A stretch of DNA of 64,000 nucleotides. It comes from a virus. Its lineage: Duplodnaviria > Caudoviricetes. Shown piece after piece: positions 44,577-50,812 of this stretch. Position 1 is the stretch's first letter; every line of letters starts with the position of its first letter. The position numbers and the translations under genes are program-made. The notes under the pieces are model-generated. The model saw nothing but the letters and a program-made list of their open reading frames with translations. It was not told where the DNA came from and did not search any database. The DNA lies in IMG/VR virus record IMGVR_UViG_3300025314_000006. One strand, written 5' to 3'.

Positions 44577-45488
44577 TTATAAATTTGTTGAAATTTTATT
44601 CCATTTTCTTTCTAAACAAGGTAGGTTAAATTTTGAGATAATGTCTTTTAATAATAATATTTTATTTCTTCTATATAAATTAATAGTTATTATATTTGTT
44701 TTTTTTACACCTTTTATAAAAAAATCATTATATAATTTTGTTTTTTTTAGAATTTTAATGTAAAATTTTTTCCAATTTTTGTGAGAAACTATAGAAATTC
44801 TATTAGAATTTTTTGAACCATTTTTAGATATACATCCATCTCCATCTATTATTCCTATTATTAAACATAATAATAATTCAGTATTATATTTAGAAATGCG
44901 TTTGAAATTTATAGGATTATAAGTTTTTCTATCTTTTAAATTATATTTTCCTTGTATTTCAGGAATTGATATTCTGTTTGAAAATGATATTCTATATGAT
45001 TGTGATTTATTTCTAAATTTTATTTCTTTATTAAAATTAATAAATTTAGCAAATTTTTGCAAGTGATTTAAATCTTTTTTCGCTAAACATAATTCGAATT
45101 TATTTTTATTTAATGAACCATCAGCTATTATAAATCCAAGCCAATAAAAACTTAAAAATGTTTCTTCTAATAATTTAGATAGATTATTTTCACTGTTATT
45201 ATATATATCATTTAACTTGTGTTCTTTTTTAAATTTACCGCCATTAATCGAACATTTTTTACATAAACTTTTATTATTAATAGCTACTCTTTTATCAGAA
45301 AATCGTGAATAAACTATAATATTATCACAATTAGGACAATTTCTATTTAAATTTTTAAATAAATCAATATCATGTTTTCTTTTTGAACATGTTCTACAAG
45401 CTCTATTTGCCTTAAAAATTTAGTTGCAATTTTTTTCAGATGAATGAATTAATTCTTTATGACATTGTGGACAATTTCTTTTATACAT
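44577..45488 (-). pseudogene. LAGLIDADG homing endonuclease with an in-frame TAA at codon 23
   Basis: ATG at 45488; CPQC, stop at 45420..45422, then CRTC/CPNC/CKKC, YWLGFIIADGS and LIIGIIDGDGCI, all in one frame continuous with the track ORF 44577..45062. Confidence 0.8.
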
Positions 45489-45558
45489 AATTTAATTTAT
45501 AATAAATATGTATAAATTTCCAAAAGCTGGTAAACCGTTATTTAATGTTTTGTTTTTA

Positions 45559-45891
45559 TTAAATCAGACATTTTATTTTTTCAATTAGCACTATTCTTGT
45601 TTCACCTAAAAAACTTACGAACTCCCAGTGTGTATCATGTTTACTGCGTTTCCAAGCTGTTTTTCTGTGTTTAAGCCCACTCGTTAAAACATCACTATAA
45701 ATTCCTTCTCCTTCAAGAAGATTTAAAAGTTGATAAGTTTTCATGCACGCATGAAATCCTTCTAAGATACAAAACCTTTCAATTTCAGTATGGTAACTTT
45801 CAATAGATTCTAAGTCTTCCTGAAACCAAATTTCAGCATGTTTGCCAGCTATTCTTATTTTGTGAATGGTTTTTATTACGTGTTCAGACAT
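45559..45891 (-). CDS. Hypothetical protein
   Basis: Track ORF; start moved to MSEHVIK. Confidence 0.6.
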   Translation of the reverse strand: MSEHVIKTIHKIRIAGKHAEIWFQEDLESIESYHTEIERFCILEGFHACMKTYQLLNLLEGEGIYSDVLTSGLKHRKTAWKRSKHDTHWEFVSFLGETRIVLIEKIKCLI

Positions 45892-46198
45892 TATTTGCTT
45901 TTTCAATATCATATTTTAAAAAATTTTCAAAAAAATCTTCAATACCACAACAACTATAATATTTATTTTGTAATCCCTTTTTATTAACTCCCCATCTTCC
46001 AGTAGTATAAAAATATTGATACTTTTTATTTCCTATATAAATAAAAATCATATGAGCACTTTCTACAACGAGAAATTTTATATTTTTATCATTTAAAAAT
46101 TTTTTAACATTTTCAATAGTTTCTTCTGTAAATCTTTTAAACTTTGCTTCTCCTTTAGAACTTACGTGAGAAAATTCCCATTTTTTTTTATTTTCCAT
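45884..46198 (-). CDS. Hypothetical protein
   Basis: 104-aa ORF coupled to the RNA ligase gene. Confidence 0.65.
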   Translation of the reverse strand: MENKKKWEFSHVSSKGEAKFKRFTEETIENVKKFLNDKNIKFLVVESAHMIFIYIGNKKYQYFYTTGRWGVNKKGLQNKYYSCCGIEDFFENFLKYDIEKANNV

Positions 46199-46998
46199 TA
46201 TTTTGTTTTATAATTGTTTTCATAACCATACCATTTATATTTTTCACTATTAATCAAAGTGGCTGGCTTCCAGGTTTTAGTCCAATGCTCATCTGTTTTA
46301 ACGTGTTTTTCCCTAACAAGTTTGAATATGTTATTAAATTCATTTGATTGTGTTTTAATAATACCGTCATTTGTTTTAAATGATTCTACGTTTCTTATAA
46401 CAAATCCCTCACAAGCCGGTTTATCATTTTCTGGGTCATAACCTCCAAGCATGCCATGAGTGTCAGTATATTCTTCCCAATTCATACCAAGAAATGATTT
46501 TAACCATTCTCTTAAAGAGTCATCTTCTGATTTTTTATCTGATATAAATTCTGATAACGGTTTCTTAATTTCTATTACCGGAACCGTAGGAAAATCCAAC
46601 ATGCCGGCATAAAACTTAACTTCTTCCCAAGAGAGCCATACACCATTTTCTCTTACGGCAAACATATAAAAAAAAGATTCAAGTTTTTTATATCCTATAG
46701 AATGTATTCCATACATATTCTCTCCAAATATTTCAAGACCTTTTAAATCATTTTTTATAAGCTCCCATCTATCCCACATAGGTTTATCCCATAGATGTGC
46801 ACTTGGTGCCGTATGCGACCTTGCAAATACTCCCTCTTTTTTAAAACAATCATTCTGTCCATCTAATTTTTCAGAAGCAATTAATTTCATTTTAGAAATT
46901 GGCTCTAAGTATCCTTCTGACAATATCCGGTCATCCGAAGTTGTTCCTTTCGAAATTGGAAAATGTAAAGTTCTTGAGTATTTTGTTGATTCTTCCAT
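46198..46998 (-). CDS. RNA ligase family nucleotidyltransferase
   Basis: YSRTLHFP; EKLDGQN (motif I KxDG); FGENMY; EGFVIR; KLVRE. Confidence 0.8.
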   Translation of the reverse strand: MEESTKYSRTLHFPISKGTTSDDRILSEGYLEPISKMKLIASEKLDGQNDCFKKEGVFARSHTAPSAHLWDKPMWDRWELIKNDLKGLEIFGENMYGIHSIGYKKLESFFYMFAVRENGVWLSWEEVKFYAGMLDFPTVPVIEIKKPLSEFISDKKSEDDSLREWLKSFLGMNWEEYTDTHGMLGGYDPENDKPACEGFVIRNVESFKTNDGIIKTQSNEFNNIFKLVREKHVKTDEHWTKTWKPATLINSEKYKWYGYENNYKTK

Positions 46999-47000
46999 TG

Positions 47001-47288
47001 TTATTTCCAGCTAACCATTAATTCGTTACAAATATGACATACATCTAAACATTCATCGTTTATGTTTAAAACATATGGAATTAAAATGTTTGTTGTCATT
47101 TTACCACAAAAATTACATTTTTTATCAAATTCAAGAGCTGTGCTATATTCTCTTTCATAACCAAAACGTAAAGCCAATTTAATATGAAAAGGTATTTTTT
47201 CAACCAAAATTTCTCTTGTTAATTTTCTATATAAAATTTCATTTAAATCAAATACTGGCTTATATGTAAATTTATTAAATTTTTCCAT
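47001..47288 (-). CDS. Hypothetical Zn-binding protein
   Basis: CNFC...CHIC; start placed at MEKFNK; TATCTTTG box at 47295..47302. Confidence 0.55.
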   Translation of the reverse strand: MEKFNKFTYKPVFDLNEILYRKLTREILVEKIPFHIKLALRFGYEREYSTALEFDKKCNFCGKMTTNILIPYVLNINDECLDVCHICNELMVSWK

Positions 47289-47351
47289 TATACACAAAGA
47301 TAACTATTTTATATTAAACGGATGAGTAACTAAATTGTTTTTAAAAAAATG

Positions 47352-47422
47352 TTGCTCCAAATAGACTCGAACTATTATCTCGCACCTTCAAAGGGTGGCA
47401 TCCTGCATTAGACGACAGAGCA
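47352..47422 (-). tRNA. tRNA-Gln(TTG)
   Basis: Acceptor TGCTCTG/TGGAGCA; anticodon loop CTTTGAA; T loop TTCGAGT. Confidence 0.8.
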
Positions 47423-47427
47423 ATATG

Positions 47428-47499
47428 TTTTCACTCAGAGATTTGAACTCCAATTACAACAGTCAAAATGTTGTGTCCTGCCAGTTAGACGAAGTGAAA
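47428..47499 (-). tRNA. tRNA-Gln(TTG)
   Basis: Acceptor TTTCACT/AGTGAAA; anticodon arm CAACA-TTTTGAC-TGTTG; T loop TTCAAAT. Confidence 0.8.
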
Positions 47500-47502
47500 A
47501 TA

Positions 47503-47545
47503 TAAAACAAAAAACCCGAGACATTTTTAAGTGTCCCGGGTTTTT
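47503..47545 (-). terminator. Attenuator terminator upstream of the tRNA-Gln pair
   Basis: AAAAACCCGGGACA-CTTAAAAA-TGTCTCGGGTTTTTT followed by GTTTT. Confidence 0.85.
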
Positions 47546-47569
47546 CGCGTAAGTATTAAATTTTTCTCT

Positions 47570-47641
47570 TTACGACATAGCAATTCCAGAACTCTTACTC
47601 AGAGTTTGTTGTTGTTGTTGCTGTACGAATATTGTTTTCAT
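47570..47641 (-). promoter_or_regulatory. Leader peptide MKTIFVQQQQQQTLSKSSGIAMS (six consecutive Gln codons)
   Basis: ATG at 47641; CAG CAA CAA CAA CAA CAA; TAA at 47570; terminator begins about 25 nt downstream. Confidence 0.8.
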
Positions 47642-47695
47642 TTTTCTTTTAAATATTAACTAATTTTTATAAACTCGTTGTTTTTAATTGACTTG

Positions 47696-47767
47696 TAACC
47701 CCGACGGTAGTCGAAACCGCATTTTGAATTCGAAAAATTCACGTCCTAACCATTAGACGACGGGGCT
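47696..47767 (-). tRNA. tRNA-Glu(TTC)
   Basis: Acceptor AGCCCCG/CGGGGTT; anticodon arm TGAAT-TTTTCGA-ATTCA. Confidence 0.85.
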
Positions 47768-47856
47768 ATATATATCTTAAACCTATCCAAATTACGTGCA
47801 CTTAATTCAGAAAAAAATTTTATAAATTCTTTCAGTTATAAAATATTCTTTCGGCT

Positions 47857-47939
47857 TGGTGCCCCTGGCGGAAGTCGAATCCGCAAAAACCAAGTTTCTA
47901 AAACTTGTAGCTGTGCCAGTTTGCATATGTCACAGGGGC
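47857..47939 (-). tRNA. tRNA-Leu(TAG), short variable arm, encoded CCA
   Basis: Acceptor GCCCCTG/CAGGGGC then ACCA; anticodon arm CAAGT-TTTAGAA-ACTTG; enlarged D region. Confidence 0.75.
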
Positions 47940-47944
47940 ATTTA

Positions 47945-48112
47945 TTACATTTTTTGCAATTGCGATTGCAAATCTGCAATTTTTCTTTGATAATCTGGAA
48001 GATTTATTTCTTTAGTTGATGACGTTTTTTTAGTCAACTCTAAAGTCATTTCATCTTGTAAGAATTTAAGTCTTTCCTGCAGTCTTTGTTTTTTCTTTTC
48101 TAATTTTCCCAT
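47945..48112 (-). CDS. Small coiled-coil protein inside the tRNA cluster
   Basis: MGKLEKKKQRLQERL...; start moved to the ATG at 48112 because the track start overlaps a tRNA. Confidence 0.6.
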   Translation of the reverse strand: MGKLEKKKQRLQERLKFLQDEMTLELTKKTSSTKEINLPDYQRKIADLQSQLQKM

Positions 48113-48135
48113 TTTATTGTTTATTATATTTATTG

Positions 48136-48210
48136 TAGTCAGAGAGGGGATTGAACCCTCGACCTTTTGTGTATAAGACAACTGCTACTTGACCGCTGAG
48201 CTACCTGACT
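48136..48210 (-). tRNA. tRNA-Ile(TAT)
   Basis: Acceptor AGTCAGG/TCTGACT; anticodon arm TTGT-CTTATAC-ACAA; T arm GAGGG-TTCAATC-CCCTC. Confidence 0.8.
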
Positions 48211-48215
48211 ATTTG

Positions 48216-48295
48216 TACCGGAAAAAAGATTTGAACTTTCACGCATTTCAGCGACAGATTTTGAATCTGCTGTGTCTACATTCCACCATTCCGGC
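48216..48295 (-). tRNA. tRNA-Leu(CAA)
   Basis: Acceptor GCCGGAA/TTCCGGT; anticodon arm GCAGA-TTCAAAA-TCTGT; long variable arm. Confidence 0.85.
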
Positions 48296-48317
48296 ATTAT
48301 TTAAAAGAACTATTCTG

Positions 48318-48399
48318 TGATCGGGAGAGGATTCGAACCTCCAATTGGCTTTCGCCACAGTTTAGAAAACTGCTTCAATATCCATTCTGGCACCCAATC
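48318..48399 (-). tRNA. tRNA-Arg(TCT) with a long variable arm
   Basis: Acceptor GATTGGG/CCCGATC; anticodon arm GCAGT-TTTCTAA-ACTGT; variable arm GGC-GAAA-GCC. Confidence 0.75.
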
Positions 48400-48416
48400 A
48401 TTTTATTTTACAACAG

Positions 48417-48499
48417 TGGTCGAGACAAGATTCGAACTTGCAATTGACTTTCGTCACAGTTTAGGAAACTGTTTCAATATCCATTTCTGACACCCAACC
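48417..48499 (-). tRNA. tRNA-Arg(CCT) with a long variable arm
   Basis: Acceptor GGTTGGG/CTCGACC; anticodon arm ACAGT-TTCCTAA-ACTGT; variable arm GAC-GAAA-GTC. Confidence 0.75.
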
Positions 48500-48508
48500 A
48501 TTATATAG

Positions 48509-48589
48509 TACCCCTGACAGGGGTCGAACCTGCAAGCTATTTGCGTTTGGGCTTAAACCAAATGAGTTTTCCAATTTCTCCACAGAGGC
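48509..48589 (-). tRNA. tRNA-Leu(TAA)
   Basis: Acceptor GCCTCTG/CAGGGGT; anticodon arm TTTGG-TTTAAGC-CCAAA; long variable arm. Confidence 0.85.
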
Positions 48590-48610
48590 ATTTTTTTCAA
48601 AGAACTACAT

Positions 48611-48649
48611 AAAAACAAAAAACCCCAACTTTTCAAGCCGGGGTTTTTT
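48611..48649 (-). terminator. Attenuator terminator upstream of the first tRNA
   Basis: AAAAAACCCCGGCT-TGAAA-AGTTGGGGTTTTTT followed by GTTTTT. Confidence 0.85.
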
Positions 48650-48669
48650 GAACATTTATATTTTTTACT

Positions 48670-48765
48670 TCATAAACGCACGTTATCCGGCCATACTGAT
48701 TTTTCCTCTATCAGTTGTTCTAAAGATAATTGTCTTAGTGAGTTGTATGTTGTGATGTTTTTCAT
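48670..48765 (-). promoter_or_regulatory. Leader peptide MKNITTYNSLRQLSLEQLIEEKSVWPDNVRL
   Basis: ATG at 48765, TGA at 48670; codons 10-21 are CTA AGA CAA TTA TCT TTA GAA CAA CTG ATA GAG GAA. Confidence 0.7.
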
Positions 48766-48806
48766 TTTTACTCTATTAAATAGTATGTTTTTTTATTAAT
48801 ACGATA

Positions 48807-48838
48807 CAAATGTATAAAAAGTTTTAACTAAAAGCAAA
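48807..48838 (-). promoter_or_regulatory. Bacteroidota-type sigma70 promoter for the tRNA operon
   Basis: TTTG-N20-TACATTTG matches the -33 TTTG / -7 TAnnTTTG consensus. Confidence 0.8.
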
Positions 48839-48887
48839 TTTATTTTCATTTATTTTTTAATATTTATGGAAAAGCCAATATTATATA

Positions 48888-49679
48888 ATGAATTCACAGG
48901 AAAAAAATATAAGAAATTTTGTTAAAAATCTTCTTAAAGAAAATTATCAAGAGATAGATGAAGCGAACAAAGGAAAACAGTTTAACTCATATTTTGAACT
49001 TGTATTTAAAAATATAAAACCAAATATTCCAGAAAATAAATTTAGCGATATAGAGATTTTACAAAAAGCTAAAGAATTAATAAATAATAAATTAACAAAA
49101 GTTTTTTTAAAAGATTTTGAATATACTGATTTTATTATTATGAAATTGGGAAAATTTGTCTTAAACGATAAAGGAGTTAGAAGTGTTTTAACTTTCAGTA
49201 AAGAAAGAGATATAGATAAAGGCTATTCCTATATGTATCTTTATATTTATCATAACACAATTGAGCTTATAAGATTTGGAAGTTCATTTTTCGAAGATAA
49301 TAATGCATTATTTAAAGAAGCAAAAGAATTCATTAAAAACAGAGATATAAAACTTGTCACAAAAACAGAAGTCGGTAAATTAGAAATTAAAAATGAATTT
49401 GAAAAAGACAATATTATAGATGTAACTGATTATAGCAAAATCCAGAAACAAGCACCCATAGAAAGACATGGTGTATTATATGATAAATCTAAAAATTATA
49501 AGGTTGGAGATAATTTCTTACATAAAAACTTAGGAGTCGGTAAAGTAGTTAAGACTAAAAGAGTTACAGCAGACGTTCCCACTATTGATGTGAGTGTACA
49601 ATTTAAAGGCGGAGAACAAAAAAGGTTTAGGATGGAAAAACCAATGATGGGTCAAATTCAAAGTCAGCAGCTGTCGTAG
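48888..49679 (+). CDS. Hypothetical protein with a C-terminal SH3/Tudor-like domain
   Basis: N-terminal IRNFVKNLLKE; C-terminal YKVGDNFLHKNLGVGKVV...VQFKGGEQKRF. Confidence 0.65.
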   Translation: MNSQEKNIRNFVKNLLKENYQEIDEANKGKQFNSYFELVFKNIKPNIPENKFSDIEILQKAKELINNKLTKVFLKDFEYTDFIIMKLGKFVLNDKGVRSVLTFSKERDIDKGYSYMYLYIYHNTIELIRFGSSFFEDNNALFKEAKEFIKNRDIKLVTKTEVGKLEIKNEFEKDNIIDVTDYSKIQKQAPIERHGVLYDKSKNYKVGDNFLHKNLGVGKVVKTKRVTADVPTIDVSVQFKGGEQKRFRMEKPMMGQIQSQQLS

Positions 49680-49959
49680 TAATAAAAATACAAACGGTAT
49701 CTAAATTTTTAAAAGTTTTACCATCTCGTAACTTTTCATCAGGTATTTGAAAGTTAACAATTACTTTTTTATTTGAAAATTTATTACATATTTCAGAAAG
49801 CTTTTCAAGGTTTACAGTATTAAGATTATTCGTTTTTATATATAATTGAATATCTTCGTCATTCGGATTTTTAACATCAACATCAATAATATCAACAGCA
49901 GATATTACTTCTGTTAATACGTTTTCCTTGATTTCTGATGTGATGTTTTTACTTTTCAT
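49627..49959 (-). CDS. Hypothetical protein
   Basis: 110-aa ORF; a variant bipartite promoter motif lies at 49966..49995. Confidence 0.6.
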   Translation of the reverse strand: MKSKNITSEIKENVLTEVISAVDIIDVDVKNPNDEDIQLYIKTNNLNTVNLEKLSEICNKFSNKKVIVNFQIPDEKLRDGKTFKNLDTVCIFITTTAADFEFDPSLVFPS

Positions 49960-49990
49960 ACTGTTTTAAACGAGGAATCATCAAAAAAGT

Positions 49991-50812
49991 TTAAAATTTT
50001 CGTTCTTTTTCCATTCTTCTTAAAGATTGTAAAGGAGTTTCTCCAGGCAATATATCATAACCACACCCTATTGTTCCACCTTTCCAAGAACCTGTTCTTT
50101 CTCCTACTTCTCCAGTGACTTTATCTGAATTTAGTGTTTTGCAATTTCGTTTTTCTAAGATAACAAATCTATCCAGTGGTCCGGCATAACTAAATTCAAT
50201 ACTAATTGTTTTTCTTTTTTTATTTGGAAAGACAGACCACTTTAACCATTTCCAACGCCATTCTCTTTCTTCTACTTTTAATTCAGCCATTCTATGTTGA
50301 ATTTCGCCATTTTTTAAAACATAAGTATAAGGATATGATTCTTTCCAGATAACATTTTTCCATTCGTCATGATAAAAATCTTTATAATTTCCTTTAGTTT
50401 CATGTGCCCAAGTATTATCTTTTCTTAAAACGCTGGTACGAACCCAATCCCAACTCCATGGCATGTAGAAGCAATGTTTTTTTCTTTTCCAACACCACCA
50501 AAAAGAATTTAACTTCCATTTTCCTTCTCCATACCAATAATATCCATATTCAGGATATTCTGAATTATTAATTCCTGAATGAATTGGAAAATCCAAATAT
50601 ACTGAGCCGTATCCAAGAGCTAAAAAAGGTATCCATATTAAAGATAAAAATGAAAAACCGGTGAAAAAAATTCCAATTAAAGGGATTAAGAGAGAAGGGG
50701 TAAAATTCATATGTGCTCTATCACTAAAATAAGATGCTGGACTAATTCTAAAACTTGTTTTTTCAAAACCTGTGTAAATATTAATCCAATCGTTTCTATA
50801 TATATTTTTCAT
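49991..50812 (-). CDS. Trp-rich hypothetical membrane protein
   Basis: 273 aa with a TM segment at about aa 40-65. Confidence 0.7.
   Translation of the reverse strand: MKNIYRNDWINIYTGFEKTSFRISPASYFSDRAHMNFTPSLLIPLIGIFFTGFSFLSLIWIPFLALGYGSVYLDFPIHSGINNSEYPEYGYYWYGEGKWKLNSFWWCWKRKKHCFYMPWSWDWVRTSVLRKDNTWAHETKGNYKDFYHDEWKNVIWKESYPYTYVLKNGEIQHRMAELKVEEREWRWKWLKWSVFPNKKRKTISIEFSYAGPLDRFVILEKRNCKTLNSDKVTGEVGERTGSWKGGTIGCGYDILPGETPLQSLRRMEKERKF

Follow-up and report, generated by a model that had tools for sequence, protein, structure and literature searches.

A putative leader-peptide attenuator in front of the tRNA-Gln genes of a T4-related phage

We report that a T4-related phage carries what is in our estimate, at a probability of roughly 0.8, a ribosome-mediated (leader-peptide) attenuator regulating its own tRNA-Gln genes. 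The DNA analyzed, hereafter the window, is a single stretch of 64,000 nucleotides. On its minus strand a 23-codon ORF with a run of Gln codons is followed by a very strong intrinsic terminator and then by two tRNA-Gln(UUG) genes. Translation of the leader, ribosome stalling, termination and read-through are all inferred from the sequence, without RNA data: the public runs that contain the region are DNA only (sediment, soil and groundwater metagenomes), with no RNA run.

The leader ORF (47570..47641, minus strand; MKTIFVQQQQQQTLSKSSGIAMS) opens with an ATG, closes with a TAA at 47572-47570 and contains one CAG and five CAA codons in a row (47606..47623, minus strand), six Gln codons that are all read by tRNA-Gln(UUG). 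An earlier note on this DNA had described a 23-aa ORF with CAG-CAA-CAA-CAA-CAA-CAA, a terminator and two tRNA-Gln(TTG) genes, and each of them lies where it was said to lie. The codon run is exceptional for this genome. Nowhere else in the 64 kb, on either strand, do four or more Gln codons stand in a row; among the 17,118 codons of the 58 long ORFs of the window 2.6% are for Gln, and none of these 58 ORFs contains a homopolymer run of five or more residues. The start context of the leader is A-rich and lacks a Shine-Dalgarno (SD) sequence, as in 57 of the 58 long ORFs; an SD-like core was seen in just one, and starts in this phage are preceded by A-rich sequence.

The terminator (47503..47548, minus strand) has a 9-bp G+C core stem (47540-47532 with 47523-47515), an A/U extension that brings the pairing out to 47548-47507, and a U-tract. 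Its predicted fold reaches -25 kcal/mol (z -7.5). Strong terminator-like hairpins, meaning a hairpin followed by a T-run, occur only about seven times in the 64 kb, and the two with the longest stems both directly precede tRNA blocks. The first tRNA-Gln gene (47427..47499, minus strand; ARAGORN, Rfam 52.3 bits) begins 15 nt past the terminator stem and the second (47351..47422, minus strand; ARAGORN, Rfam 45.1 bits) follows it. Since this leaves no space for a promoter between the terminator and the first gene, tRNA-Gln would be made only by read-through. Placing both tRNA blocks behind strong terminators would also suit control by timing (early versus delayed-early, as for the T4 tRNA genes) or by an antiterminator protein of phage or host, with the leader ORF being irrelevant, and delayed-early read-through control is known for T4-type phages. 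We give this explanation only a slim chance, because it accounts neither for the ORF found ahead of each terminator, with codons that match the tRNAs downstream, nor for the conserved competing helices described below.

Folding of the full leader predicts a hairpin joining the region after the Gln run to the downstream part of the coding sequence, in addition to the terminator. When the terminator 3' arm is cut off, or when the footprint of a stalled ribosome is masked, the terminator 5' arm is predicted to pair with the coding region instead. The earlier note had proposed an antiterminator in which GTTCTGG pairs with CCGGGAC of the terminator 5' arm. The pairing exists (47592-47586 with 47539-47533, 7 bp including two G-U), at 13 nt past the last Gln codon rather than the roughly 14 proposed, but taken alone a 7-bp complementarity is close to what chance would give (about 0.1 by our estimate for the window), and it does not make up the whole helix. 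Folding places it as the core of a longer, composite structure of -12 to -17 kcal/mol (-12.1 kcal/mol in total in the window), whose outer helix pairs 47597-47586 with 47539-47528 and whose inner helix (47545..47583, minus strand; 47583-47569 with 47560-47545) holds the stop codon of the leader. Three minus-strand segments can be named by analogy with classical attenuators. Segment 1 (ACUCU, 47601..47605) would pair with AGAGU of segment 2 just past the Gln run; segment 2, the outer 5' antiterminator strand (UAAG.GUUCUGG, 47586..47597), begins about 9-13 nt past the last Gln codon; and segment 3 (47528..47539), composed of the terminator 5' arm and the first loop bases, is common to antiterminator and terminator.

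We assessed the antiterminator with dinucleotide shuffles of the upstream part in which the terminator arm was kept fixed. The z-score in the window is -1.8 (p about 0.05), so that support from the window alone is marginal; the predicted structure scores -2.6, -3.8 and -4.0 in three related contigs (L009, L008 and L014, respectively) and -1.2 to -5.9 in nine independent leaders. A competing antiterminator is predicted in 13 of the 13 variants tested, at -6.9 to -18.2 kcal/mol, and the predicted switch is strongest in the units of L044 and L082. In most variants the stop codon falls inside it, and segment 2 itself includes the stop codon in several independent leaders. An alignment of seven homologues keeps the terminator 100% paired with two compensatory pairs, and keeps the seven-pair antiterminator core 100% paired through three one-sided changes, without any double (compensatory) change in that core. 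The small 1:2 hairpin formed by ACUCU and AGAGU lies right after the last Gln codon (-6.3 kcal/mol, z -1.8) and recurs in L008 and L009. For a longer 1:2 fold the window gives z -0.1, which is not significant, and two relatives give -2.1 to -2.6. The terminator is predicted to be about twice as stable as the antiterminator, implying that the switch must be kinetic.

On these elements, which are observed, and on the helices, which are predicted, we propose the following mechanism. Transcription would enter from the upstream tRNA operon and the leader would be translated as it emerges. When Gln-tRNA(Gln) is scarce, the ribosome would stall in the CAG/CAA run and cover segment 1, leaving segment 2 (47597-47586, together with the inner helix to 47569) free to pair with the terminator 5' arm before the 3' arm is made. 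The resulting read-through would yield the two tRNA-Gln and probably also the co-directional genes behind them, including that of an RNA ligase. When Gln codons are decoded fast, the ribosome would run on to the stop codon inside the antiterminator and melt it. That a ribosome reaching the stop would block the antiterminator had been anticipated in the earlier note, which had it covering GTTCTGG; on our reading it would instead occupy the inner helix and the loop of the outer one, melting the former and preventing the latter from closing. The terminator would then form and the transcript would end about 8 nt before the first tRNA. The geometry of the stalled and stop-codon ribosomes is inferred from the known size of the ribosome footprint. 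The regulated product would be the very molecule that is sensed, which makes this a direct negative feedback on the capacity to decode CAA and CAG. One counterpoint is that the leader sits inside a tRNA-rich transcript, where ribosome loading would compete with processing by RNase P and RNase E. A host tRNase defense as the trigger remains speculation, for which we have no evidence here.

Relatives of the module were found through the neighboring RNA ligase and through degenerate DNA patterns, giving seven homologous contigs: L009 (= L001, L012), L008 (= L015), L010, L011, L014, L016 and L018. Two further metagenome pattern matches (L013, L017) were discarded as false positives. All seven contigs retain the leader, the terminator and two to four tRNA-Gln genes. 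The start, frame and stop of the leader and six or seven Gln codons are kept, while the N-terminus, the spacer after the stop and the sequence of the terminator diverge. Every tRNA-Gln called in these contigs (two to four in each; UUG, CUG) lies directly behind the leader and none ahead of it, and the upstream neighbor of the leader varies between a tRNA-Glu, a tRNA-Leu and a protein gene. Gating does not extend to every tRNA of these phages, as the relatives have, about 5 kb downstream, a pair of tRNAs for Arg(tct) and Met with neither leader nor terminator.

Two local arrangements around the leader were seen along the way. In the L001/L009 relative, the ORF ahead of the leader ends in a stop codon that overlaps the leader ATG. 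In the window, the spacer ahead of the Gln leader (47656-47742, minus strand) retains the 3' end of a protein gene (..EFIKIS, then the stop) that is intact in L011, L016 and L018, which indicates that a deletion in the lineage of the window put tRNA-Glu beside the Gln leader.

We also searched IMG/VR for the design irrespective of homology, using a pattern that requires five Gln codons, then a T-run at a distance of 65-95 nt and, 28-52 nt past the T-run, YTTTGR. The pattern matched 82 loci, in 13 of which the 3' end of the match falls on a true tRNA-Gln(ttg) according to ARAGORN. Eleven of these 13 were new; their leader peptides, 14-26 codons long, are of at least seven unrelated kinds that have only the Gln run in common (for example MKNISTFQQQQQFP and MRTTTQYQQQQQINPTD). 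At each of the 11 new loci a G+C hairpin with a T-run comes after the leader, and two to five tRNA-Gln genes come next. In total, a Gln run precedes a tRNA-Gln array in 18 loci, with five to eight Gln codons across the relatives and the independent families; one tRNA-Gln, in L041, lies outside the gated array. As a control, an equal pattern with a Glu run, in which the anticodon could be that of Gln or of Glu, gave a tRNA in none of 121 loci among those listed from IMG/VR, and a scan of IMG/VR for His runs followed by tRNA-His gave none in 27 loci. A hypergeometric estimate for 13/82 against 0/121 (again, Glu loci among those listed) is p about 4e-6. The Glu and His results, which apply to leaders of this geometry, double as a control and show that the single-codon design is not general. 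A variation on the layout was seen in L048 (3511-3601; the same in L091), where two tandem terminator hairpins lie between the Gln leader and the tRNA-Gln array.

These comparisons bear on whether the ORF is simply a small protein gene, with a leaky terminator or insulator, constitutive read-through supplying tRNA-Gln, and a poly-Gln stretch unrelated to sensing. In the close family, the C-terminal half of the peptide (TL-x-K-x-SGIA-x-S) is kept and its changes are mostly synonymous or conservative, as a protein would require, and no expression data speak against it. That the peptide is not shared by at least seven further leader families, which have the Gln run alone in common, nonetheless makes such a gene very unlikely, as do the recurrence of terminator-competing segments in every variant and the absence of any match in the Glu-run (among the loci listed) and His-run controls. 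It would also leave unexplained that the identity of the run changes with that of the tRNA, as in a Lys run ahead of tRNA-Lys.

This last case comes from G001, the contig of L001/L009, which is 518,809 bp long, is classed as complete with direct terminal repeats, and contains 55 tRNA matches in four or five clusters, several of which sit behind codon-matched leaders. One leader with five Lys codons and a terminator lies 8 nt before five tRNA-Lys genes. Residues 3-19 of another leader are all Thr, Asn, Ser, His, Phe or Lys, and between it and the Lys unit are the tRNAs for Phe, Ser, Asn, His and Thr. A third leader, rich in Trp, Pro, Val, Met, Thr, Gly, Ala, Ile, Asp, Tyr and Arg, precedes exactly that set of tRNAs. 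When five leaders of G001 were tabulated against five tRNA sets, the diagonal was highest for the mixed units. Phages that carry unrelated Q-leaders follow suit, with blocks of Asp and Pro tRNAs behind a leader with a Pro/Gln/Asp core and a terminator. The earlier note had seen in the window the layout of his/trp-type attenuators and had proposed, as a check in relatives, that the codon run should track the identity of the downstream tRNA; it does, with Gln runs before tRNA-Gln, a Lys run before tRNA-Lys and mixed leaders before mixed blocks, and this tracking, which is observed, supports the attenuator reading of the layout.

The window itself contains a second, mixed unit, at the head of the tRNA operon. 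A 31-codon leader ORF (48670..48765, minus strand) is followed by the first terminator (48616..48650, minus strand), directly before tRNA-Leu(UAA), and by a first gated block (47695..48589, minus strand) of tRNA Leu(taa), Arg(cct), Arg(tct), Leu(caa) and Ile(tat), a 55-codon ORF, a tRNA-Leu(tag)-like RNA and tRNA-Glu(ttc). Within codons 10-21 of this leader, 11 of 12 can be read by tRNAs of the operon (Leu, Arg, Gln, Glu, Ile), compared with 23.6% genome-wide, for which a binomial estimate that allows for the choice of codon window is about 2e-5. This leader, too, is conserved and has a predicted competing helix. The tRNA operon would thus contain two attenuators in series, the one for Gln coming second.

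Several features in and around this first block were recorded in their own right. The 55-codon ORF between the operon tRNAs (47945-48111 in the window, minus strand; 8393-8557 in L009) is conserved, rich in Lys, Glu, Leu and Gln, and coiled-coil-like. The tRNA-like RNA (47856-47939, minus strand) is 84 nt long and has its CCA end encoded; it combines a long D region with a short variable region and has a UAG anticodon loop. It was missed by both ARAGORN and Rfam, occupies the position of the tRNA-Leu(tag) of the relatives, and matches unannotated DNA of Synechococcus phage BUCT-ZZ01 (84% identity) and Rhizobium phage RHph_I1_18 (74%). A hairpin of about 50 nt lies between a promoter-like segment and the ATG of the first leader in L008 (418-470), L009 (7965-8025), L010, L014 and L016, with base changes on both arms between contigs; the window lacks it. 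In L008 (649-722) and L009 (8207-8282) the first terminator is immediately followed by a tRNA-shaped sequence that ARAGORN does not call and whose anticodon loop reads UUCGUAA.

The mixed leaders also weigh on the possibility that (CAA)n acts as RNA rather than as codons, be it as an (A-R-N)n Hfq-type site, an unstructured spacer or a T-box-like array of specifiers read without a ribosome. Out of frame, (CAR)n repeats A-R-N perfectly, and the UUG anticodon complements CAA. On the other side, the tract in every case shares its frame with the ATG and the stop of an ORF of 14-26 codons, mixed leaders free of repeats obey equal logic, and no T-box or other Rfam family matches 45000-50000 at E<=1; the SD-less genes suggest a Bacteroidota-type host, and Hfq is generally absent from such hosts, which would count against an Hfq-type site. 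We regard this as the least credible of the rival explanations. The Rfam scan of 45000-50000 at that threshold returned only tRNAs and two sub-threshold, unrelated matches, and a T-box riboswitch was rejected as a candidate, as no T-box sequence, specifier loop or stem I architecture was found with Rfam. No rival explains the codon-tRNA tracking together with the recurring competing helices.

The phage of the window is T4-related, with a gp23-type capsid protein and a tail sheath, and its DNA has about 29% G+C. The best matches of the capsid protein are in uncultured phages of 484-595 kb, at 33-34% identity. A blastn search of the window module and two other Q-leader modules against GenBank phages returned no useful cultured relative. 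From the SD-less genes we presume that these huge T4-related phages probably have a Bacteroidota-type host. Scans for sigma-70 promoters and for a Bacteroidota-like TTTG...TAYTTWAT pattern gave hits at the level expected by chance in AT-rich DNA, leaving the promoter inferred only from a conserved segment upstream of the first leader. Separately, a motif ACTATTTAAT (or ACTATTTATT; ACTATTTAA in L060) lies from a few to about 70 nt before leader ATGs, at 48775-48783 (minus strand) in the window and also in L060, L066 and L008. It could be a -10-type promoter element producing near-leaderless leader mRNAs, although the motif alone occurs at chance frequency in AT-rich DNA. About 350 nt behind the tRNA-Gln genes, and co-directional with them, lies an RNA ligase gene (46198-46998, minus strand; PF09414, E 7.7e-23). 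It may be co-regulated by the attenuator, and its proximity fits a tRNA-repair theme but proves nothing.

The proposed attenuator is reminiscent of hisL of Salmonella and E. coli, and of trpL, pheL, leuL and thrL, in that a short ORF contains a run of the sensed codon (seven His codons in hisL) ahead of an intrinsic terminator that precedes the regulated genes. The alternative 2:3 and 3:4 helices of his-type attenuators are predicted here as well, with the 1:2 helix seen only as the small hairpin, and the last regulatory codon lies about 13 nt from segment 2. The proposed attenuator differs from these systems in that its targets are tRNA genes rather than biosynthetic enzymes and the molecule sensed is the product, and in being phage-borne, with an SD-less start, and placed inside a tRNA operon where another proposed attenuator precedes it. 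The stop codon, moreover, lies within segment 2 and the inner helix and not just upstream of segment 2. Closer in target is pheST of E. coli with its pheM leader, a leader-peptide attenuator acting on a translation component of the sensed amino acid, although pheM controls a synthetase and not a tRNA gene, and is cellular rather than viral. T-boxes likewise sense the supply or charging of tRNA for one amino acid through a choice between terminator and antiterminator, but they bind uncharged tRNA directly with a large structured leader and without translation, whereas the phage leader is only about 100 nt long and coding. The mixed leaders of the window (48765-48670) and of G001 sample several amino acids, as do the multivalent leaders of ilvGMEDA and thr, with the difference that the amino-acid set of the phage leaders is that of the tRNAs encoded downstream, up to 11 kinds. 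A full-text search of the literature, incomplete in its coverage, turned up no account of tRNA genes controlled by leader-peptide attenuation, be it in phages or elsewhere. The class of mechanism is known from amino-acid genes; the target class and the feedback logic are new as far as that search shows.

Beyond this single unit, we find it likely that in huge T4-related phages whose genes lack an SD the tRNA genes work as product-feedback circuits, with each block placed behind a mini-gene written in its own codons. Such a phage would gauge the speed of decoding for each codon and replenish only those tRNAs that run short, whether through codon-usage mismatch, host shut-off or anticodon nucleases, and single-amino-acid units (Gln here, Lys in G001) would tune one tRNA species alone. 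It is an open question how phages regulate their tRNA genes and what they carry them for; codon bias, host shut-off and escape from tRNA-cleaving defenses are among the reasons proposed. If true, our reading would mean that these phages treat tRNA supply as a measured, homeostatic quantity, and it would extend classical attenuation to a new class of target genes. The element could then serve as a small, naturally occurring sensor for the availability of one tRNA species, and a change of its codon run might rewire it; leader peptides could predict which tRNAs matter to a phage.
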